A stretch of 64,000 bases of DNA, taken from the NCBI RefSeq assembly GCF_022846255.1, contig NZ_AP025682.1; one strand, given 5' to 3'. The DNA comes from Escherichia coli (GTDB lineage: Bacteria > Pseudomonadota > Gammaproteobacteria > Enterobacterales > Enterobacteriaceae). Below the pieces are notes generated by a model. That model worked only from the letters and a program-made list of their open reading frames with translations, made no database searches and was not told the DNA's origin. Below are positions 976 through 60,651 of the stretch, piece after piece. A program made the position numbers and the translations under genes. Position 1 is the stretch's first letter; each line of letters opens with the position of its first letter.

Positions 976-1051
976 TGGTGGGTCGTGCAGGATTCGAACC
1001 TGCGACCAATTGATTAAAAGTCAACTGCTCTACCAACTGAGCTAACGACCC
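976..1051 (-). tRNA. lysQ: tRNA-Lys (UUU anticodon)
   Basis: 76-nt reverse complement of GGGTCGTTAGCTCAGTTGGTAGAGCAGTTGACTTTTAATCAATTGGTCGCAGGTTCGAATCCTGCACGACCCACCA; gene name from position in the 7-tRNA operon. Confidence 0.9.
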
Positions 1052-1084
1052 CTTGCGGGATTATGCTGCTTTAATCATTCAGGA

Positions 1085-1160
1085 TGGTGGGTCGTGCAGG
1101 ATTCGAACCTGCGACCAATTGATTAAAAGTCAACTGCTCTACCAACTGAGCTAACGACCC
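1085..1160 (-). tRNA. lysZ: tRNA-Lys (UUU)
   Basis: Identical 76-nt tRNA-Lys copy. Confidence 0.9.
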
Positions 1161-1208
1161 ATACGGGTGTTACCTGAAAGATTTCTACTCGGAACCAATG
1201 TTTAAAAT

Positions 1209-1284
1209 TGGTGGGTCGTGCAGGATTCGAACCTGCGACCAATTGATTAAAAGTCAACTGCTCTACCAACTGAGCTAACGACCC
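1209..1284 (-). tRNA. lysY: tRNA-Lys (UUU)
   Basis: Identical 76-nt tRNA-Lys copy. Confidence 0.9.
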
Positions 1285-1287
1285 GAG

Positions 1288-1363
1288 TGGTGGGTGATGA
1301 CGGGATCGAACCGCCGACCCCCTCCTTGTAAGGGAGGTGCTCTCCCAGCTGAGCTAATCACCC
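1288..1363 (-). tRNA. valZ: tRNA-Val (UAC)
   Basis: Reverse complement of GGGTGATTAGCTCAGCTGGGAGAGCACCTCCCTTACAAGGAGGGGGTCGGCGGTTCGATCCCGTCATCACCCACCA. Confidence 0.9.
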
Positions 1364-1414
1364 GATACTGCGCTGGATACTACAAACTACTTCCACCGAA
1401 CCCACCGTAATCAG

Positions 1415-1490
1415 TGGTGGGTCGTGCAGGATTCGAACCTGCGACCAATTGATTAAAAGTCAACTGCTCTACCAACTGAGCTAACGACCC
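1415..1490 (-). tRNA. lysW: tRNA-Lys (UUU)
   Basis: Identical 76-nt tRNA-Lys copy. Confidence 0.9.
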
Positions 1491-1492
1491 GG

Positions 1493-1568
1493 TGGTGGGT
1501 GATGACGGGATCGAACCGCCGACCCCCTCCTTGTAAGGGAGGTGCTCTCCCAGCTGAGCTAATCACCC
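1493..1568 (-). tRNA. valT: tRNA-Val (UAC)
   Basis: Second tRNA-Val copy, 2 nt after lysW. Confidence 0.9.
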
Positions 1569-1603
1569 GATACTACGCTGGATACTACAACTAACTATGT
1601 TAG

Positions 1604-1679
1604 TGGTGGGTCGTGCAGGATTCGAACCTGCGACCAATTGATTAAAAGTCAACTGCTCTACCAACTGAGCTAACGACCC
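1604..1679 (-). tRNA. lysT: tRNA-Lys (UUU)
   Basis: First tRNA of the operon on the minus strand; identical tRNA-Lys sequence. Confidence 0.9.
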
Positions 1680-2644: not shown

Positions 2645-3190
<546 letters not shown>

Positions 3191-4625: not shown

Positions 4626-5891
4626 TTACGGTTTGAAGTCCAATGGCGCGTTTTTGAACACTTCATATACTGCCTGGCTTGGTGGTTTCGGGATCTTCGC
4701 AAGTTTAGCTGCTGCCAACGCAGCCTGACAAAGTGCGGGATCGCCACCTTCAGGTTTGATATCCAGTAACATACCATCGGGTGCCAGTTTTATGCGCAGC
4801 GTACAGGTTTTGCCTGCATAGGACGATGCGTCATAGAACTTACTTTCGATAGCAGATTTAATCTGCCCGGCATAGTTATTGATATCGGCCCCTGATGCGC
4901 CATTGTTTTTAGTATTACCACTCCCGGCTGGCGAAGCATTGTTCCCTTTCGCCCCTCCCCCCGTTTTCGGTGCATTCTTACCAGAGCTTAGCTCACCGAA
5001 AATATCATCTGCCTCTGCGGCAGCTTTTGCTGCAGCGGCTTTTTCAGCTGCTGCTTTTGCCGCTGCCGCTTTTTTGTCTGCGGCGGCTTTTTCTGCCGCT
5101 GCTTTCTTATCAGCTGCTGCCTTTTCAGCAGCCGCTTTTTCTGCTGCTTTTTTGTCGGCTGCCGCTTTCTCTGCTGCCGCTTTCTTATCAGCTGCAGCCT
5201 TTTCAGCAGCCGCTTTCTTCTCAGCTTCTGCTTTGGCTTTTTCAGCAGCTTCAGTTGCCGCTTTCTTTCTTGCTTCAGCTGCAGCTGCTTCTGCCGCTTC
5301 CGCTTTCTTCTTCAGTGCCGCCGCGGCTGCCTCGGCTTTTTTCTGCGCTTCGGCTGCGGCTTTGGCGGCTTCTGCTTCTGCTTTTTTCTTCGCGTCTGCA
5401 GCCGCTTTCTTCGCTGCTTCTTCCGCAGCTTTTGCATCCGCTTCAGCCTTCGCTTTAGCATCTGCCGCCGCTTTCGCTGCCGCTTCTTCCGCTTGCTTCT
5501 GCTTTAACTCGGCCTGTTTTGCGGCTTCTTCAGCCTGCTTTTTCTGTTCCTGAGCCGCTAACCGCTCTTTCTCAAGTTGCTTCAGGCGTTCCTGTTCAGC
5601 CGCTTGTTTCTCACGCAGTTCTTCAGCAGCCTGCTGTTCCTTCATCTTGCGCTGCTCATCAGAACGCTTCGCGCTTGATTCCTGGCTTTGCATGCGTTTG
5701 TACTGCTCAACTACCGCACCTGAATCAACCATGACAGCGTCGATGGACGAACCACCGCCGCCTCCGGCTGAAGCTTCTATATTCTCATCGAACGAACTCC
5801 AGATCAGCGCCGCAAATAAGATGACATGCAGCACTGCTGAAATAATTATCGCCCGTTTGAGCTTGTCGTTTTGTTCGGTTGCCTTTGACAC
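4626..5891 (-). CDS. tolA: Tol-Pal system protein TolA
   Basis: 421-aa ORF with N-terminal TM segment, long Ala/Lys/Glu-rich helical domain II and C-terminal domain III. Confidence 0.95.
   Translation of the reverse strand: MSKATEQNDKLKRAIIISAVLHVILFAALIWSSFDENIEASAGGGGGSSIDAVMVDSGAVVEQYKRMQSQESSAKRSDEQRKMKEQQAAEELREKQAAEQERLKQLEKERLAAQEQKKQAEEAAKQAELKQKQAEEAAAKAAADAKAKAEADAKAAEEAAKKAAADAKKKAEAEAAKAAAEAQKKAEAAAAALKKKAEAAEAAAAEARKKAATEAAEKAKAEAEKKAAAEKAAADKKAAAEKAAADKKAAEKAAAEKAAADKKAAAEKAAADKKAAAAKAAAEKAAAAKAAAEADDIFGELSSGKNAPKTGGGAKGNNASPAGSGNTKNNGASGADINNYAGQIKSAIESKFYDASSYAGKTCTLRIKLAPDGMLLDIKPEGGDPALCQAALAAAKLAKIPKPPSQAVYEVFKNAPLDFKP
4990..5600 (-). repeat. Imperfect tandem nucleotide repeats encoding the Ala/Lys-rich TolA domain II
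   Basis: Recurring gctgc(c/a)gc.. ttt(c/t)t.. units on the plus strand; protein repeats of KAAAEKAAADKKAAA type. Confidence 0.8.
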
Positions 5892-49579: not shown

Positions 49580-50344
49580 ATGAAATTGAATATCCGCGCG
49601 CAAACTGCACAAAACCAGCACAATAATTCTCCCATCGTTCTTGTCCATGGTCTGTTTGGTAGCCTCGACAACCTTGGCGTACTGGCTCGCGATCTGGTAA
49701 ACGATCACAATATCATCCAGGTTGATATGCGTAACCACGGTCTTTCACCGAGAGATCCGGTAATGAATTACCCGGCGATGGCGCAGGATCTTGTTGATAC
49801 CCTGGATGCACAGCAGATCGACAAAGCAACATTTATCGGTCACTCCATGGGCGGTAAAGCGGTAATGGCTCTTACTGCACTAGCCCCCGATCGCATTGAC
49901 AAGCTGGTGGCGATTGATATTGCGCCGGTCGACTATCACGTACGCCGTCATGATGAGATTTTCGCGGCCATCAACGCAGTCAGTGAATCAGACGCACAAA
50001 CACGCCAGCAAGCAGCGGCAATAATGCGCCAGCATCTTAATGAAGAAGGGGTGATTCAGTTTCTGTTGAAATCTTTTGTTGACGGGGAGTGGCGCTTTAA
50101 CGTGCCAGTATTGTGGGATCAGTATCCGCATATTGTGGGTTGGGAGAAAATCCCGGCATGGGATCATCCTACCCTGTTTATCCCTGGCGGCAATTCTCCG
50201 TATGTTAGCGAGCAGTACCGTGATGATTTACTGGCACAATTTCCACAGGCTCGGGCGCATGTGATTGCAGGCGCGGGTCACTGGGTCCATGCTGAAAAAC
50301 CGGATGCGGTATTACGCGCTATCCGTCGCTATCTCAATGATTAA
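49580..50344 (+). CDS. ybfF: Alpha/beta-hydrolase esterase YbfF
   Basis: 254-aa ORF with GHSMGG nucleophile-elbow motif. Confidence 0.9.
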   Translation: MKLNIRAQTAQNQHNNSPIVLVHGLFGSLDNLGVLARDLVNDHNIIQVDMRNHGLSPRDPVMNYPAMAQDLVDTLDAQQIDKATFIGHSMGGKAVMALTALAPDRIDKLVAIDIAPVDYHVRRHDEIFAAINAVSESDAQTRQQAAAIMRQHLNEEGVIQFLLKSFVDGEWRFNVPVLWDQYPHIVGWEKIPAWDHPTLFIPGGNSPYVSEQYRDDLLAQFPQARAHVIAGAGHWVHAEKPDAVLRAIRRYLND

Positions 50345-50347
50345 CGC

Positions 50348-50367
50348 AACTGATTAAAAACCCAGCG
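50348..50367 (+). promoter_or_regulatory. Putative LexA (SOS) box upstream of ybfE
   Basis: aaCTGattaaaaaccCAGcg has CTG-N10-CAG spacing; ybfE is remembered as SOS-regulated. Confidence 0.4.
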
Positions 50368-50483
50368 TCCGCGTCGCTTTCCGCGCGTGGACGTTGGCGT
50401 GACTCCTCACGCTGATGTATTATGGCGCGCTATCCATCCGGGCAGAGGCCTGGCTGATTGTTTCCCCCGAAGTCACCAAGATC

Positions 50484-50777
50484 ATGGCCAAAGAACAAAC
50501 GGACCGTACGACATTAGATCTGTTCGCGCACGAGCGTCGACCGGGACGACCGAAAACTAATCCGCTTTCGCGCGATGAACAGCTGCGTATTAATAAACGT
50601 AACCAACTAAAACGCGACAAAGTACGTGGCCTTAAGCGTGTCGAACTGAAGCTGAACGCGGAAGCTGTCGAGGCACTGAACGAGCTGGCGGAGTCGCGCA
50701 ATATGAGCCGTAGCGAACTGATCGAAGAGATGTTAATGCAGCAACTGGCGGCGCTGCGTAGTCAGGGCATCGTTTAA
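50484..50777 (+). CDS. ybfE: CopG-like DNA-binding protein YbfE
   Basis: Start trimmed to [24 protein letters not shown]; 97 aa. Confidence 0.8.
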
Positions 50778-50916
50778 ATTTCCACTTTCATGTAGCACAG
50801 TGTGCAGTCCTGCTCGTTTGCTGATTCCGCAAGACTGCCTGTTCTGCTATGATTGCCTTTATCCGTGGGCAATTTTCCACCCCCATTTCAATAAGTTTCA
50901 AGAGGTTATTTCACTC

Positions 50917-51447
50917 ATGGCTATCACTGGCATCTTTTTCGGCAGCGACACCGGTAATACCGAAAATATCGCAAAAATGATTCAAAAACAGCTTGGTAAA
51001 GACGTTGCCGATGTCCATGACATTGCAAAAAGCAGCAAAGAAGATCTGGAAGCTTATGACATTCTGCTGCTGGGCATCCCAACCTGGTATTACGGCGAAG
51101 CGCAGTGTGACTGGGATGACTTCTTCCCGACTCTCGAAGAGATTGATTTTAATGGTAAACTGGTTGCGCTGTTTGGTTGTGGCGACCAGGAAGATTACGC
51201 AGAATACTTCTGCGATGCATTGGGCACCATCCGCGACATCATTGAACCGCGCGGCGCAACTATCGTTGGTCACTGGTCAACTGCGGGCTACCACTTCGAA
51301 GCGTCAAAAGGTCTGGCTGATGATGACCACTTTGTCGGTCTGGCTATCGACGAAGATCGTCAGCCGGAACTGACCGCTGAACGTGTAGAAAAATGGGTTA
51401 AACAAATTTCTGAAGAGCTGCATCTCGACGAAATTCTCAATGCCTGA
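50917..51447 (+). CDS. fldA: Flavodoxin 1
   Basis: Start at [20 protein letters not shown]; 176 aa. Confidence 0.95.
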
Positions 51448-51652
51448 TGTGATGCGGCGTAGACTCATGTCTACGCCGTATTAATAGATAATGCCAATCA
51501 AAATAATTGCTACAAATTTGTAACTTTTGCTGTTGTACCTGTACAATGTCCCGGTGTTCAAGTGGCCTTGCCGTTGTAAATGTAAGCTGTGCCACGTTTT
51601 TATTAACAATATTTGCCAGGGACTTGTGGTTTTCATTTAGGCGTGGCAATTC

Positions 51653-51671
51653 TATAATGATACGCATTATC
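51653..51671 (+). promoter_or_regulatory. Fur box (autoregulation of uof-fur)
   Basis: tataatgatacgcattatc closely matches Fur consensus GATAATGATAATCATTATC. Confidence 0.65.
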
Positions 51672-51743
51672 TCAAGAGCAAATTCTGTCACTTCTTCTAA
51701 TGAAGTGAACCGCTTAGTAACAGGACAGATTCCGCATGACTGA
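51657..51743 (+). CDS. uof: Upstream-of-fur leader peptide Uof (28 aa), translationally coupled to fur
   Basis: Internal Met of track ORF 51507..51743: MIRIISRANSVTSSNEVNRLVTGQIPHD; overlaps fur start. Confidence 0.75.
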   Translation: MIRIISRANSVTSSNEVNRLVTGQIPHD

Positions 51744-52182
51744 TAACAATACCGCCCTAAAGAAAGCTGGCCTGAAAGTAACGCTTCCTCGTTTAAAAAT
51801 CCTGGAAGTTCTTCAGGAACCGGACAACCATCACGTCAGTGCGGAAGATTTATACAAACGTCTGATCGATATGGGTGAAGAAATTGGTCTGGCTACGGTA
51901 TATCGCGTACTGAACCAGTTTGACGACGCTGGTATCGTCACCCGCCACAATTTTGAAGGCGGTAAATCCGTATTTGAACTGACACAGCAACATCACCACG
52001 ATCACCTGATCTGCCTCGACTGCGGCAAGGTAATCGAATTTAGTGATGATTCCATCGAAGCGCGTCAGCGTGAAATTGCCGCAAAACATGGCATTCGCCT
52101 GACTAACCACAGTCTCTATCTTTACGGTCACTGTGCCGAAGGCGATTGCCGCGAAGATGAGCACGCGCACGAAGGCAAATAA
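51736..52182 (+). CDS. fur: Ferric uptake regulator
   Basis: 148-aa ORF, MTDNNTALKKAGLKVTLPRLKILEVL. Confidence 0.95.
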   Translation: MTDNNTALKKAGLKVTLPRLKILEVLQEPDNHHVSAEDLYKRLIDMGEEIGLATVYRVLNQFDDAGIVTRHNFEGGKSVFELTQQHHHDHLICLDCGKVIEFSDDSIEARQREIAAKHGIRLTNHSLYLYGHCAEGDCREDEHAHEGK

Positions 52183-52197
52183 GCCAGCCTGAACGAG

Positions 52198-52227
52198 AAA
52201 AGCCAACCTGCGGGTTGGCTTTTTTAT
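52198..52227. terminator. Bidirectional terminator between convergent fur and chiQ
   Basis: aaaagccaacc-tgcg-ggttggctttttt. Confidence 0.6.
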
Positions 52228-52265
52228 GCAAGGGAAATAAGAAAAGCGAGAGTTACAGCTCTCAC

Positions 52266-52592
52266 TTATTTGTTATTACTGCGAATTTCCTGCCAGACCT
52301 TATCACAATCGGCTTTCACCGCCTGATCATTTCCGGTTTGCGTTGCGCGCAGACACTGCTGATAATCCAGTACGCGGACACTTTCCTGGTCGGCAAACTG
52401 CTGATGTTGTTTCTCTTTCTTCAGCACGTTTAACACGCTCTGGCAGGCTTCAATTTTTTCTGGCGAACCTTGTGCGGTGTTGATACAGGCGCTGTATGCC
52501 TCTTTCAGACGACTGTCTTCCTGTGGCGCGGTTGATTGCACACAAGCTATCAGCCCCGATGCCATTATGGCGATGAGAATCAGTTTTTTCAT
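52266..52592 (-). CDS. chiQ: Lipoprotein ChiQ (YbfN)
   Basis: 108-aa ORF with lipobox LIAC. Confidence 0.85.
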   Translation of the reverse strand: MKKLILIAIMASGLIACVQSTAPQEDSRLKEAYSACINTAQGSPEKIEACQSVLNVLKKEKQHQQFADQESVRVLDYQQCLRATQTGNDQAVKADCDKVWQEIRSNNK

Positions 52593-52641
52593 AGCAAATT
52601 CCTCAAACGTGCGGCAGGCACAAAACCTGCCGCGTCGGGCA

Positions 52642-54048
52642 TCAGAAGATGGTGAATGGTGCGATTACCATAAATTTCACGTCACGCTCATCCTGGAAGA
52701 TGTTGCCGTAACCACCGCCCCAGCTTGGGATGTCGGAGTGGTTGTCGTATTCGGTGAAGTGCAGTTTGAACATCGTGCCTTTGGCGCGACCGTCCTGAAT
52801 GGTGTACACCGCATCCAGGCTGTAGGCAGACTCTTCAATAGTCCGGTTTTTATCGTAGTACGCATCCGGATTGCTCTGCCAGGTAGCGGGTTTAGCATCC
52901 CATGCGTAAACGTAGGAAGCGCCGATGGCGAAGCCTGGAAGATTCCAGTTTTTCAGGTCATACATCGCACCGAAGAAGACCGCTTTTTCGCCGTTAGCGT
53001 TGAAGTCGGAACGGTTATCCCACCAGATATCCAGGCGGCCGTTGGAGGAAGCGTAGGTTGGAGTCATACGTTGCAGGAAGTATCCCTGCTGACCGTCAGC
53101 CTTAACCCAGGTACCTTCGAGGCGCAAATCCACTACGTCAGCCGCCCGGTAACCAAAGGTCAACGCCTGCAGCCAGGCGGTGCCGTCATAAAGATCGTTG
53201 ACGCTGCGATCGTCAACTTTATCGCGCGTACCGTAGAACTGGTAGCTGGTGGTTAACGGGCTACCGGCGATATCAAATTTGTAGCTGGCTTTGGCAAAGT
53301 ATTGATCGATATACCCTTCCGCCTGACCAAACGCTGCTTCCAGTACAAAGTTATTTTTGAAGTCGTACTTCGCACCGATGGAGTGCAGATAATCAACTTT
53401 GGTGGTTTTATCGTTCTGATAAAACTCATCCATTTCCAGATGCCACGGTGCTTTGTATTCGTTGGTCCACATGTAGGAGAAACTCAACGCACCAGCATCG
53501 CCGTAATCAAAATTCGCCCCGGCCTCCGCCCCCTGATAAGTACCCGGCATAAAGCTCCAGTGTGGCGCTAACAGCGTCTGACCGGTTGGCTGAATATAAC
53601 CTGCCCTCGCCCATACCGGACCGTATTTAAATTTGGCCGCTGCTTTATACAGGCTTATACCGCTTTTATCGCCGGACCAGTCTTCGTCATAGGCTTTATT
53701 ACTTTTTGAAAACGCGATTTCGTTCGGGTGAGAGCTGTCGCCGTTTTCTGCCATTTCAATCGCTGTAAACGCGGCAATATCCAGACCGAACATATCAGCG
53801 GCATAGCCAGACTGAAAATCGAGATTAGCGTTCCAGGTGGAGTGAGAAAGGTTGGTTTTATATTTGTCGCCGTCGGTAACATCTTTACGGTCACGTTCAC
53901 GCTGCCAGTAATAGATACCGCCGGTTAAGGTTGAATCTTCGAAGAATCCTTCGGCGCGAGCCTCTGGCATTGCCACAAAGCCCGACATTGCTGTAACACC
54001 GGCGATAGCCAGCGCCAGCGTACTACGTTTGCCACTAAACGCACGCAT
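52642..54048 (-). CDS. chiP: Chitoporin ChiP (YbfM), OprD-family outer-membrane porin
   Basis: 468-aa ORF, signal peptide, C-terminal F. Confidence 0.9.
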
Positions 54049-54399
54049 GGGTTAATCCTCTTTGACGTATAAATTGCTGCACCAAAGGTGAACAGCGAAA
54101 AAAATAAAAATTAAAAAAGTAGCGTTGAGAAAAGTCTCGCTGACTACAGGAACAGACTATTTTTCGCGACGCGAATTATCAATCTCTTTCTGTAACCAGA
54201 ATGTAAGAACATGAGCAACCGCACATATTTTGATGATTTTTGTTACAAGGCTTAAGTTGTAGTTGAAAGGTGTGTTGAAGAAAAAATGCGTGAATTTCCA
54301 GCAAGATGAAAGCGGTTACATTTTATTTAATTATGATTTGTAATTTTAAATTTGCTTTATGAATAAATTACGAAGCGGAATTAATTCGCGAAGAAAAGC

Positions 54400-54428
54400 A
54401 GAAAAAAAACGCCGCGGAGCGCGGCGTT
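54400..54428 (-). terminator. Rho-independent terminator of glnS
   Basis: cgccgcg-gag-cgcggcg hairpin with U-run on minus strand. Confidence 0.6.
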
Positions 54429-54488
54429 TGGGTTTGTTTGCTATTTTTTGCCGGATGCGGCGTGAACGCTCTATCCGACAACGTAAAC

Positions 54489-56153
54489 TTACTCGCCTAC
54501 TTTCGCCCAGGTATCACGCAACCCAACGGTGCGGTTAAATACCGGTTTTTCCGCCGTAGAATGGCGGCTGTCGAGACAGAAGTAACCTTCACGCTCAAAC
54601 TGGAATGCTTTACCCGCTACCGCATCTTTCAGCGACGGTTCAGCAAAGCCCTGTTTGATCACCAGCGATTCCGGGTTAATCACCGACAGGAAATCATCCG
54701 CAGCACCTGGGTTCGGCACGCTGAACAGACGATCGTACAGGCGGATTTCAACCGGCAGCGCATGTGCCGCGCTCACCCAGTGAATAACGCCTTTCACTTT
54801 ACGACCATCTGCCGGATCTTTGCTTAAGGTGTCGGCGTCATAAGTACAGAAGATGGTGGTGATATTGCCTTCGGCATCTTTCTCCACGCGTTCTGCCTTA
54901 ATGACGTAAGCATTACGCAGACGCACTTCTTTACCCAGCACCAGACGTTTGTACTGCTTGTTAGCTTCTTCGCGGAAATCGGCGCGATCGATCCAAATCT
55001 CACCGCTAAACGGCACCTGACGGCTGCCCATTTCCGGTTTATTCGGATGGTTCGGCATGGTAACCATTTCGCCTTCGCCCTGGTAGTTTTCGATAACCAG
55101 TTTCACCGGATCGATAACCGCCATTGCGCGCGGGGCGTTTTCGTTGAGATCTTCACGGATGCAGGATTCCAGCGACGCCATTTCAATGGTGTTGTCCTGC
55201 TTGGTCACGCCGATGCGTTTGCAGAACTCACGAATAGAAGCAGCAGTGTAACCACGACGACGCAGACCGGAAATGGTCGGCATACGCGGGTCATCCCAGC
55301 CTTCAACGTGCTTGTCGGTCACCAGCAGGTTCAGCTTACGCTTGGACATCACAGTGTATTCCAGATTCAGGCGCGAGAATTCGTACTGGCGCGGGTGAAC
55401 AGGAATGGTGATATTGTCCAGTACCCAGTCATACAGACGACGGTTATCCTGGAACTCCAGCGTACACAGAGAGTGCGTAATACCTTCCAGCGCATCGCTG
55501 ATGCAGTGGGTGAAGTCGTACATCGGGTAGATGCACCACTTGTTGCCAGTCTGGTGGTGTTCAGCAAATTTAATGCGGTACAGCACCGGATCGCGCATTA
55601 CGATAAATGGCGACGCCATGTCGATTTTCGCACGCAGGCAGGCTTTACCTTCTTCAAAACCACCGGTACGCATTTTTTCGAACAGCGCCAGGTTCTCTTC
55701 AACGCTGCGGTCGCGGTACGGGCTGTTTTTACCCGGCTGCGTCAGGGTGCCGCGATATTCGCGGATCTGTTCCGGTGTCAGTTCATCAACGTACGCCAGG
55801 CCTTTATTGATCAGTTCGATCGCATAGGCGTGGAGCTGATCAAAATAATCGGAGGAGTAACGGACGTTACCAGACCAGTGAAAACCTAACCACTCAACGT
55901 CGTTTTTGATCGACTCAACATACTCGATATCTTCTTTTACCGGGTTAGTGTCGTCGAAACGCAGGTTGCACTGGCCTTTATAGTCCTGGGCGATCCCGAA
56001 GTTCAGGCAGATAGATTTCGCATGGCCAATATGCAGATAGCCATTCGGCTCCGGCGGGAAACGGGTGTGTACTGTGGTGTGCTTACCACTGGCCAGATCT
56101 TCATCGATGATCTGACGAATAAAGTTAGTCGGGCGGGCTTCTGCCTCACTCAT
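54489..56153 (-). CDS. glnS: Glutaminyl-tRNA synthetase
   Basis: 554-aa ORF with HIGH motif (HIGH at [14 protein letters not shown]) and VMSKR. Confidence 0.95.
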
Positions 56154-56317
56154 CGTGGATTCCTCAAAGCGTAAACAACGTATAACGGCGTATGATCTTA
56201 TAAGCGGGACAGGCTGACAACTGTTAGTTAGTGAAAATCGAAAATCTCACTGAGATTATGGGGATGATTGATGAAAAAAAAAGCGGCAGAGAAGATCTCC
56301 ACCGCTTGTCATTGTTG

Positions 56318-56346
56318 GATGCGACGCTCAAGCGTCGCATCAGGCA
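56318..56346. repeat. REP-like palindrome in glnS-nagE spacer
   Basis: gatgcgacgctcaagcgtcgcatcaggc. Confidence 0.55.
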
Positions 56347-56355
56347 TAAAGAAGA

Positions 56356-58302
56356 TTACTTTTTGATTTCATACAGCGGCGTTTGACCCGCAACGACATG
56401 GCCCTGAGCTTTAATGATCAAGCCGCTGAAATCGTCGATATTGCTGCAAACCACCGGGCTAATCATCGAGCGGGCGTTTTCGTTCAGATAATCCAGATCC
56501 ATTTCCAGAATCGGTTGCCCTGCGCTTACTTGCGCGCCCTCTTCCACCAGACGTTTAAAGCCTTTACCTTCCAGCGCTACGGTGTCGATACCCATATGGA
56601 CGACAATCTCCGCGCCTTTTTCAGTTTCCAGGCAGAATGCGTGGTTGGTGTTGAAGATTTTCACGATAGTCCCTGCGGCTGGTGATACGACGATTTTATC
56701 TGTCGGTTTCACCGCCACACCGTCACCCACCGCTTTGCTGGCGAATGCTTCGTCAGGAACCTGATCCAGTGCCACAACATCACCGGTAATCGGCGATACC
56801 AGCTCCGCGATAGATACTGCGTTTGGTACAGCCTGCGGTTTTGCTACAGGCGCGGCAGTTGCCGGAGCAGTTTCAGCAGAGGCAGCGGCTACCGGACCGC
56901 GGGCAACGACTTTCTTCATCGCATCGCCGATGGATTCTGCTTTCGCGCCAACAATCACCTGAATAGTCTGTTTGTTCAGTTTCACTACCCCAGAAGCACC
57001 CAGACGTTTACACATCGTATCGTTAACGCGGGCAGAGTCAGCCACTGTAAGGCGCAGACGGGTGATACAGGCGTCAATTGCTTTCAGGTTGTCAGTGCCG
57101 CCAACCGCAGCAATATAGTTGGTTGCCAGTTGATTGAGACCTTCTTCAGTATTGCTGTTAGCCTCTTCAGTAACGATCTCGTCTTCTTTATCTTCACGAC
57201 CCGGCGTTTTCAGGTTGAACATGCGGATAACCAAACTGAACACCACGAAGTAGATAGCGAAGAAGACAACCCCCATCACCAGCAGCATCCAGACGTTCTG
57301 GCTGGCGGCCGGCAGGTTATACATCAACGCGTAGTCGATAGCCCCCGCAGAGAAAGAGAAGCCGGCATGGATACCCAGCAGCGTTGCCACAAACAGGCTG
57401 ATACCGGTCAGCAGTGCGTGCAGGAGGTACAGCAGCGGTGCAAGGAACATGAACAGGAATTCCAGCGGCTCAGTCACACCGGTCAGGAACGCAGTAACAG
57501 CAACAGAAAGCAGCATCCCGCCAACCATCGGACGACGCTCTTTCGGTGCTGCGAAGTACATCGCCAGCGCCGCACCCGGCAGACCGAACATCATAATCGG
57601 GAAGAAGCCGGACATGAACATCCCCGCGGTGCCGTCACCGGCATAGAAGCGGTTGATATCACCGTGGAAAACCGTTCCCGCCGCGTTGGTGAATTCACCA
57701 ATCTGGAACCAGGCGATGGTGTTCAGCACCTGATGCAGACCAGTTGGGATCAGCAGACGGTTGATGAAACCAAAGATACCGGAACCCAGCGCGCCCGCAG
57801 AAACGATCCACTCGCCGCCTGCATGGATAGCGTGCTGTACCGGTGGCCAGACGTAACCAAAAATGGCCGCCAGCACCAGACAGAAGAAGCCGGTGGCGAT
57901 CGGCACAAAGCGTTTGCCGCCGAAGAAGCTCAGGAAGTCCGGCAGTTTAATATCGGACCAACGGTTATAGGCTGCGCCACCAACCAGACCGGTAATGATA
58001 CCCGCCAGTACACCCATGTTAATTTCTGGGTTGATGGTCACCATCGCTTTGGTTAACACAAAGTAACCTACCGCACCCGCCAGTGCCGCCGCACCTGCGC
58101 TGTCTTTCGACCAGCTGGATGCCACGCCGATGGCGAAGATTAATGCGAGGTTATCAAAAATCGCACCGCCCGCCTGGGCAATAAACGCAACGTTAAGTAA
58201 ATCTGGCTGACCGAATCGCAGCAACAGCGCCGCCACCGGCAGCACCGCGATAGGGAGCTGTAACGCCCTACCGAGTCGCTGGAAAAAACCTAAAATATTC
58301 AT
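56356..58302 (-). CDS. nagE: PTS N-acetylglucosamine-specific EIICBA
   Basis: 648-aa ORF. Confidence 0.95.
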   Translation of the reverse strand: MNILGFFQRLGRALQLPIAVLPVAALLLRFGQPDLLNVAFIAQAGGAIFDNLALIFAIGVASSWSKDSAGAAALAGAVGYFVLTKAMVTINPEINMGVLAGIITGLVGGAAYNRWSDIKLPDFLSFFGGKRFVPIATGFFCLVLAAIFGYVWPPVQHAIHAGGEWIVSAGALGSGIFGFINRLLIPTGLHQVLNTIAWFQIGEFTNAAGTVFHGDINRFYAGDGTAGMFMSGFFPIMMFGLPGAALAMYFAAPKERRPMVGGMLLSVAVTAFLTGVTEPLEFLFMFLAPLLYLLHALLTGISLFVATLLGIHAGFSFSAGAIDYALMYNLPAASQNVWMLLVMGVVFFAIYFVVFSLVIRMFNLKTPGREDKEDEIVTEEANSNTEEGLNQLATNYIAAVGGTDNLKAIDACITRLRLTVADSARVNDTMCKRLGASGVVKLNKQTIQVIVGAKAESIGDAMKKVVARGPVAAASAETAPATAAPVAKPQAVPNAVSIAELVSPITGDVVALDQVPDEAFASKAVGDGVAVKPTDKIVVSPAAGTIVKIFNTNHAFCLETEKGAEIVVHMGIDTVALEGKGFKRLVEEGAQVSAGQPILEMDLDYLNENARSMISPVVCSNIDDFSGLIIKAQGHVVAGQTPLYEIKK

Positions 58303-58634
58303 CTTATTCCCCCTACGAGAACCCTATTTGGCTCGTTTAAAGCCGTATTTTTATTTTGCTGCAAATTGTACTGCCGATGTTCTGTAATCAGATTGTTAGA
58401 TCATCTGCTACAGAGTGTGTGAAAATTTAATTCGTATCGCAAATTAAACGCGTGTCTTTTGTGAGTTTTGTCACCAAATATCGTTATCATCACTCCCTTT
58501 TACTGGCTAAACCAGAAAACTTATTTTATCATTCAAAAAATCAGGTCGGATTGACGCCTGTCTGCGCAAATCCAGGTTACGCTTAAAGATGCCTAATCCG
58601 CCAACGGCTTACATTTTACTTATTGAGGTGAATA
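58303..58634. promoter_or_regulatory. Divergent nagE / nagBACD promoter region
   Basis: AT-rich spacer between divergent nag operons; individual NagC/CRP operators not pinpointed. Confidence 0.5.
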
Positions 58635-60643
<2,009 letters not shown>

Positions 60644-60651
60644 GAGAAAGT

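Follow-up and report, generated by a model that had tools for sequence, protein, structure and literature searches.

The Ala/Lys-rich repeats that we studied are the known intragenic tandem-repeat tract of Escherichia coli tolA, and we believe that the tract is a mutational hotspot whose length is held near an optimum, with the modal allele present here (a probability of roughly 93%). The repeats lie in a window of 64,000 nucleotides of E. coli DNA, which is the whole stretch that we analysed. The variability of the tract, the mechanism of its instability, and its effects on phenotype have already been published. In a modern sample of complete genomes, we recover the published spectrum of alleles, with about two-thirds of genomes having 13 repeat units, and this has little import beyond annotation. 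The tract illustrates, at textbook level, how a repeat within a gene can stay in frame and alter the length of a stalk that spans the periplasm and transduces force.

The tolA gene and its domains

In the list of open reading frames, tolA is on the minus strand at 4626-5891 and has 421 codons and a GTG start. The protein has full-length matches to two curated NCBIfam models: the TolA equivalog NF007065 (554 bits, with a cutoff of 213) and the TolA model TIGR02794 (308 bits, with a cutoff of 59). It is identical at 100% of residues to TolA from E. coli K-12 MG1655, and the two genes differ at 14 nucleotides, all of which are synonymous changes at third codon positions. Two E. coli genomes have an annotated tolA whose DNA is 100% identical to that of the window. 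The order ybgC-tolQ-tolR-tolA-tolB-pal-cpoB is found on one strand, and each of these genes matches its own NCBIfam equivalog. The gene is thus in a standard tol-pal operon.

The domains of TolA and the parts of the repeat region are listed in Table 1. Domain I contains the SHLS motif (Ser18, His22, Leu29, and Ser33 in the translation), and a Ser-His-Leu-Ser motif with His22 has been described for the TolA anchor (PMC10666116). Domain III is matched by the solved structures 1S62, 3QDP, 1TOL, and 2X9A, which cover residues 292-421. The original prediction placed repetitive coding DNA in tolA domain II, at 4990-5600. This span encodes residues 98-301 and so takes in the greater part of domain II; of these 204 residues, 97 are Ala, 44 are Lys, and 32 are Glu. 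The open reading frame, the TolA equivalog, and the TolA_C family from Pfam all agree with this assignment.

Single-sequence AF2 models of two alleles each contain two long helices. The break between the helices is at residues 201-203 in the window allele (421 residues) and at residues 152-154 in the O157 allele (394 residues), and both models have low confidence (pTM of 0.25-0.29). From the models of both alleles, we would say only that domain II is predicted to be helical.

Table 1. Parts of TolA and of its repeat region, in window coordinates
Feature	Residues	Positions	Strand	Basis
Domain I, N-terminal membrane-anchor helix	1-34	5790..5891	-	Translation; single-sequence AF2 helix at 3-34
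Domain II, Ala/Lys/Glu-rich helical stalk	~60-302	4986..5714	-	AF2 helices at 60-200 and 204-302; composition
Ala-rich helix and degenerate repeats with 12/24-bp periods, upstream of the canonical tract		5226..5504	-	Weaker TRF rows at 5333-5504
Canonical tandem-repeat tract	223-291	5019..5225	-	Published primers (PMC3477136) as landmarks; TRF periods of 15/30/33 bp
Two direct copies of a 78-bp (5-unit) higher-order repeat		5063..5221	-	TRF
Flexible, Gly/Asn-rich linker from domain II to domain III	~303-333	4893..4985	-	AF2 coil; pLDDT <50 at 306-331
Domain III, globular C-terminal TolA domain	325-419	4635..4919	-	Pfam PF06519 TolA_C, E = 2e-38

Anatomy of the repeat tract

The canonical tract is bounded by two published primers, Pure_TRs Fw and 2-repeats-Fw (PMC3477136), and corresponds to nucleotides 667-873 of the gene (207 bp). 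We parsed it into 13 imperfect units, each of which is 15 or 18 bp long and encodes 5 or 6 residues with the consensus A-E/D-K-(K)-A-A. The first seven units are AEKKAA, AEKAA, ADKKAA, AEKAA, ADKKA, AEKAA, and AEKAA, and units 8 to 13 are ADKKAA, AEKAA, ADKKAA, AAKAA, AEKAA, and AAKAA. Zhou et al. put stop codons in place of a pair of Lys codons (KK), and this pair is in TR3, which confirms the register of the units.

Tandem Repeats Finder (TRF) gives overlapping periods of 15, 30, 33, 45, and 78 bp over 5014-5234. Its top row has a period of 78 bp (2.0 copies, 88% matches, and a score of 255), and this higher-order repeat is the likely substrate for events that add or remove five units. TRF does not report any tandem repeats at 5235-5332 or at 5505-5600. 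Less conserved repeats upstream of TR1 were also noted by Zhou et al. (PMC3477136).

The span in the original prediction was therefore a little too wide at both ends. It contains all of the indels that we describe below, but the array proper is narrower (5019-5225), and both ends of the span are non-repeat: 4990-5018 encodes AEADDIFGELS, with which the linker starts, and approximately 5505-5600 encodes a helix that is rich in Glu, Gln, and Lys but has no tandem repeats.

We compared the region to two kinds of shuffled sequences: 500 codon shuffles, which keep the composition, and 500 synonymous shuffles, which keep the protein. The longest exact repeat in the region is 20 nt, as compared to 13.8 ± 1.6 nt in codon shuffles, and just 3 of the 500 reached this length. 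There are 25 shared pairs of 12-mers (6.1 ± 4.2 in codon shuffles; reached by 1 of 500) and 177 shared pairs of 9-mers (63 ± 14; reached by none of 500). All three measures exceed what codon shuffling gives, which means that the codons are repetitive in their order and not just in their composition. Together with the TRF periods and the parse into 13 units, this excess bears out the description of the region as an array of imperfect short repeats.

The synonymous shuffles gave a different picture. Neither the longest repeat (72 of 500 shuffles reach it) nor the 12-mer pairs (108 of 500) were in excess of this null. The only measure above it was the number of 9-mer pairs across the whole region (177, versus 108 ± 20; reached by 2 of 500), and this excess was absent from either half of the region taken alone. 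Codons that are 78 bp apart are identical at 19 of 33 positions, as compared to 12.3 expected (p = 0.012 for this single lag, or about 0.08 across all lags), and this is the one further hint of memory in the DNA itself. Since the region lies mostly within the synonymous null, the repetition is essentially at the level of amino acids, with the codons scrambled, and each unit has its own sequence. Homogenisation of the DNA by recent duplication or gene conversion was expected, but we rejected it, since the repeat measures mostly fall within what synonymous shuffling gives. From the synonymous shuffles it also follows that the tract is not a homogeneous, classic hypermutable microsatellite and that its instability is moderate.

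Length variation among E. coli genomes

With megablast, tolA was found in 5,425 of 5,426 complete genomes of E. coli. We sampled these by making three even-step draws from the similarity ranking, with three query alleles and 59 full-length rows each, for a total of 177 genomes. The original prediction stated that the length of domain II differs among strains, and it does: there are 18 lengths of tolA in the sample, the shortest being 1185 bp (394 residues) and the longest 1347 bp (448 residues). The modal length, which is that of the window allele (1266 bp, 13 units), is found in 118 of the 177 genomes (66.7%), and the next most common are 1311 bp (17 genomes, or 9.6%), 1299 bp (7, or 4.0%), and 1185 and 1251 bp (5 each, or 2.8%), where these frequencies are not corrected for phylogeny and are distorted by over-represented clones, as for the 1311-bp allele. 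Most of the other lengths are found in few of the sampled genomes.

It had also been suggested that the copy number here defines this strain's allele. This is the one weak point of the prediction, as the 13-unit, 1266-bp form is the modal one and is common to about two-thirds of E. coli. What distinguishes the window allele from that of K-12 is the 14 synonymous SNPs. Several lineages have a typical length that is not the modal one: O157:H7 (three alleles), an ST131-like background that carries the 1311-bp allele (+45), and UTI89/NU14 (-15).

Seventeen of the 18 lengths are multiples of 3, and 176 of the 177 genomes have tolA in frame. The sole frameshift length, 1265 bp, is from NCTC 86, where the gene is annotated as frameshifted. 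It is missing one G from a run of six G in the Gly-rich linker, outside of the repeats. That essentially all alleles are in frame can be explained by the repeat periods, all of which are multiples of 3, and by the cost of losing tolA.

Location and recurrence of the indels

We aligned the window allele with 19 alleles that were fetched from across the range of lengths. (An alignment of this kind, with a count of the units, had been proposed along with the original prediction; the count for the window allele is 13.) In these 20 alleles, every indel is at nucleotides 427-840 of the gene, or 5052-5465 of the window, and the protein sequences of domains I and III do not vary. The sizes of the indels are mostly whole numbers of the 15- or 18-bp units.

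Exact direct repeats, 5-98 nt long, border most of the indels. Insertions of 12, 15, 24, 33, and 78 nt are perfect tandem copies of the adjoining sequence, and the exact identity at their flanks runs to 19-98 nt. The largest of these is the natural allele of strain C9, which has a perfect tandem duplication of 78 nt with 98 nt of flanking identity. The insertions of 45 and 81 nt are bounded by short exact direct repeats. There are also deletions of 6, 15, 33, 42, 45, 48, and 81 nt, most of which have exact direct repeats of 7-13 nt (for example, AAGAAAGCGGC). An exception is the 48-nt deletion in str116, which has no flanking repeat if compared to the window allele; but compared to its own O157 background, it is an insertion of 30 nt with a 38-nt flank.

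The indels are not confined to the canonical tract. Of 14 mapped events, 5 are wholly upstream of it, within residues 143-222. The -48 and -81 events also begin in those residues but extend into the canonical tract. Indels in this upstream zone include +24 at about 5465, -45 at 5345-5389, -42 at 5268-5309, -6 at 5283-5288, and -48 at 5220-5267. The +24 event is located where TRF reports a period of 24 bp. We also note that the zone of natural indels at residues 143-222 surrounds the point at which, in the single-sequence model, one long helix gives way to the other.

Alleles of different lengths are often identical otherwise. On a K-12-type background, there are zero SNPs between alleles of 1218, 1224, 1233, 1266, 1290, and 1344 bp. 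The same is true on an O157:H7-type background for 1185, 1215, and 1275 bp (the last of these includes the O157:H7 strain SS17) and on an ATCC 25922-type background for 1221 and 1266 bp. These length variants with zero SNPs imply that changes in length arose repeatedly and recently. Judging from these comparisons of alleles, tolA may change in length at a pace that is at least comparable to that of point substitution in this 1.2-kb gene. If these differences within clones are real and frequent, then the length of tolA could be a fast marker within clones. Recurrent variants on SNP-identical backgrounds are an indication of mutability, not of benefit.

How the repeats may change and what may constrain them

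The original prediction held that such an array is prone to slipped-strand or recombinational changes in length. The direct repeats that flank the indels, the perfect tandem duplications, and the indels with zero SNPs all fit with this, as do the published rates of contraction (PMC3477136). In the experiments of Zhou, Michiels, and Aertsen (2012, PLoS One 7:e47766; PMC3477136), contractions were obtained under selection at a frequency of 6.9e-5 per cell. A recA mutation brought contraction down to 15% of this frequency, a uvrD mutation raised it 3.3-fold, and a mutS mutation left it unchanged (PMC3477136). Deletions of five units (5-TR) were the most frequent in these selections (PMC3477136).

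We propose that direct repeats, from 5 nt to roughly 100 nt in length, would misalign and that whole units would be gained or lost as a result. The short perfect duplications, and the deletions between repeats of 8-13 nt, resemble replication slippage. The step of 78 nt, up or down, between the 78-bp copies resembles unequal, RecA-dependent recombination. The pattern of the indels can be read from the alignment, while in choosing between slippage and RecA-dependent recombination we lean on the published work, and this choice is probable at best.

What do the repeats do? According to the literature, they build part of a helical stalk that runs from the anchor at the TolQR motor in the inner membrane to domain III at the outer membrane, and they act both as a structured spacer and as a rod that transmits force. 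Removing domain II abolishes the function of TolA, and if a disordered linker is put in its place, then colicin import is slow and the outer membrane is not stabilised (PMC10666116). The result with the disordered linker implies that domain II is a structured spacer that transmits force (PMC10666116). Published descriptions of the stalk are of an extended alpha-helix or of a helical hairpin (PMC10666116; PMC8928145). AlphaFold and SAXS suggest that in the ground state it is a helical hairpin of about 220 Å, which may extend when energised (PMC8928145). Also, CpoB is bound by residues 280-313 of TolA (PMC8928145).

Variants recur on identical SNP backgrounds, yet 13 units (421 residues) remains the modal length across divergent backgrounds, that of the window included. 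From the frequencies in our sample, the near absence of out-of-frame variants, and one published set of phenotypes, it appears that tolA has a mutational hotspot that selection holds near an optimum length.

Alternatively, the tract could be an adaptive contingency locus, in which bet-hedging is favored and different niches or pathotypes positively select different lengths (because of bile, acid and osmotic stress, or filamentous phage and colicins), so that the variants would be more than noise tolerated around an optimum. We consider this to be unlikely. In an isogenic series of strains, tolerance of deoxycholate rose by four orders of magnitude between 2 and 39 units; long alleles were at a disadvantage when low pH was combined with high salt; and the plating of phage fd was highest with 13 units, with every other allele at 28-43% (PMC3477136). 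Furthermore, several lineages have a characteristic length that is not the modal one, and on the O157:H7-type background, three lengths are not separated by any SNP. Yet two-thirds of the genomes retain the modal length, across divergent SNP backgrounds, and the variant lengths are mostly rare. Lineage-typical lengths are predicted equally well by hitch-hiking in clones that are expanding. And the published phenotypes are from engineered alleles, of which those expanded to 26 and 39 units are far beyond the natural range. We prefer a hotspot that is held near its optimum.

A related idea is that the variable zone may be wider and more active than the published 13-unit tract, and that, if the differences within clones are real and frequent, pathotypes might tune the reach or stiffness of the stalk in a lineage-specific way. 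We view this as doubtful.

It is very improbable that the region has only a low-complexity composition and that the length differences are artefacts of assembly or sequencing. The region is strongly biased towards Ala, Lys, and Glu codons, and one of the sampled genomes does have a frameshifted tolA of 1265 bp. But just 0-3 of 500 codon shuffles reach the observed repetition, TRF gives ordered periods, and 176 of 177 lengths are in frame, with the single frameshift being in the run of six G, outside of the repeats. Also, the variant lengths recur in independent complete genomes (17 with 1311 bp, 7 with 1299 bp, and 5 each with 1185 and 1251 bp), and RefSeq annotates these genes as intact coding sequences. 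Finally, variants were found by PCR and sequencing in a survey of 234 isolates (Zhou, Vanoirbeek, Aertsen, and Michiels 2012, Res Microbiol 163:316, as described in PMC3477136).

That the repeats are part of a separate gene on the plus strand (4879-5553, with 224 amino acids, or 4970-5458, with 162 amino acids) is close to impossible: although both frames are long and open, and 4879-5553 shares its third codon positions with tolA and has just 1 amino acid change from 12 nucleotide changes relative to K-12, neither frame has a match in Pfam, 4970-5458 gains a stop codon in K-12 and ATCC 25922 and has its protein altered by 8 of 8 SNPs, 4879-5553 mirrors the Ala codons (the antisense of GCN GCN, shifted by one base, is GCN) and stops where the Ala-rich tract ends, and the curated models match tolA over its full length. 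We rejected both frames as mirror images of Ala codons. A scan for promoters and terminators gave 10 terminator-like hairpins on the antisense strand, as compared to 3.6 ± 1.7 expected. We do not take these to be functional, as they are quasi-palindromes of GCTGCAGC followed by runs of T (antisense Lys codons).

Comparison with known systems

The tract in the window is the same one that Zhou et al. studied, and as an instance of it, it does not differ in anything essential (PMC3477136). As summarised in that paper, the tract consists of 13 repeats that are imperfect and 15 or 18 bp long, copy numbers in nature range from 8 to 16, and 13 copies were found in 66% of the 234 isolates surveyed (PMC3477136). 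The last figure matches the 66.7% of our sample that has a 1266-bp gene. The natural lengths in our sample reach about five units above the modal length (1344 and 1347 bp), which is slightly above the range as given there. The predominant five-unit deletions in the laboratory mirror the natural step of 78 bp in strain C9 (+78). Also, several of our natural indels are at residues 143-222, where Zhou et al. had only some laboratory deletions and one natural isolate (PMC3477136).

In Salmonella Enteritidis, the locus SENTR1/SE-10 is likewise a variable-number tandem repeat within tolA and is used for MLVA typing (PMC2430564). Its stated unit is 45 bp, with 7.8 copies, and we set it beside the E. 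coli tract by this description (PMC2430564).

Domain II of TonB, with its Glu-Pro and Lys-Pro repeats, is likewise a repetitive and structured spacer that spans the periplasm, in a homologous force transducer, and the domain II regions of TonB and TolA are partly interchangeable in chimeras (PMC10666116). On the other hand, domain II of TonB forms a polyproline-II helix, rather than an alpha-helix as in TolA; it belongs to the ExbBD-TonB system; and the two domains have no sequence similarity.

More broadly, tolA can be compared to other genes whose length changes by way of repeats, relatively often and reversibly, at the cell surface or at the interface with the environment. This much it has in common with the classical contingency loci, which have simple-sequence repeats and show on/off phase variation. 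Those loci switch by frameshifts, whereas the units of tolA are imperfect and are multiples of 3, so that its changes are graded and in frame; the tolA tract does not turn the gene on and off. And with contraction at about 7e-5 and a partial dependence on RecA (PMC3477136), the tolA tract also differs from the typical slippage of homopolymers and tetranucleotides.

Block-wise length variation of tolA

In the O157:H7-type background, tolA is found at 1185, 1215, and 1275 bp, and there is not a single SNP among these alleles (L010, L012, and L007 among the tolA alleles that we fetched, and H64, H65, H136, and H177 among the matches in genome samples). They differ by blocks of 30, 60, or 90 nt, and the blocks are flanked by exact repeats of 38-66 nt. 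The three lengths could be used as a sub-lineage marker within O157:H7.

Antisense features of the repeats

Two long open frames run antisense to tolA across its repeat tract (see the table). Neither of them has a match in Pfam. The frame at 4879-5553 is the alanine codons of tolA in mirror image; SNPs are almost silent in this frame as well, because it has its third codon positions in common with tolA. The frame at 4970-5458 is interrupted by a stop in K-12 and in ATCC 25922.

Features on either strand of the tolA region
Feature	Position	Strand	Description
Long antisense open frame	4879-5553	+	224 aa, 'AAAFSAAAF...'; spans repeat tract
Long antisense open frame	4970-5458	+	Spans repeat tract
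Cluster of seven tRNA genes	976-1679	-	Directly downstream of cpoB
pal, mechanical ORF	2645-3190	-	TTG start, 181 aa

We also noticed 10 terminator-like hairpins antisense to tolA (5009-5429, plus strand), versus 3.6±1.7 expected. They arise where quasi-palindromes of the GCTGCAGC type precede runs of T, which are antisense lysine codons. The hairpins are probably without meaning, though quasi-palindromes of this type could be an aid to misalignment.

Unusual copies of tolA

Within the collection of 5,426 E. coli genomes, just one lacks any match to tolA, and plasmid-labelled records carry two matches. In strain CAVP773, the record starts within tolA and thereby splits it. In NCTC 86 (L015, NZ_OZ489144.2), tolA is annotated as frameshifted: the G6 run in the glycine-rich linker, near nt 930 of the gene, is short by one G, and the allele is otherwise identical to that of K-12. 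The missing base may be an error of sequencing, or else tolA may truly be a pseudogene in this old reference strain.

Genes near tolA and the origin of the window

The tRNA cluster comprises five Lys-UUU and two Val-UAC genes. Since the Pal model covers residues 9-181 of the mechanical pal ORF, translation probably begins at the internal ATG (MQLNKVL..., 173 aa).

Over its whole length, the window has no close match among the complete E. coli genomes of the collection. The highest identity among them is 99.3% for positions 1-25000, just 97.8% for 25001-50000 (the kdp/speF/pgm region), and 98.9% for 50001-64000 (nag/glnS/chiP), where the top matches are ST648-like strains. Among the matches listed, FDAARGOS_497 and 21AR0303 have a tolA that is 100% identical to the window's. 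The window may come from a lineage that is sparsely sampled or mosaic, or else from a close relative that is filed outside of E. coli.
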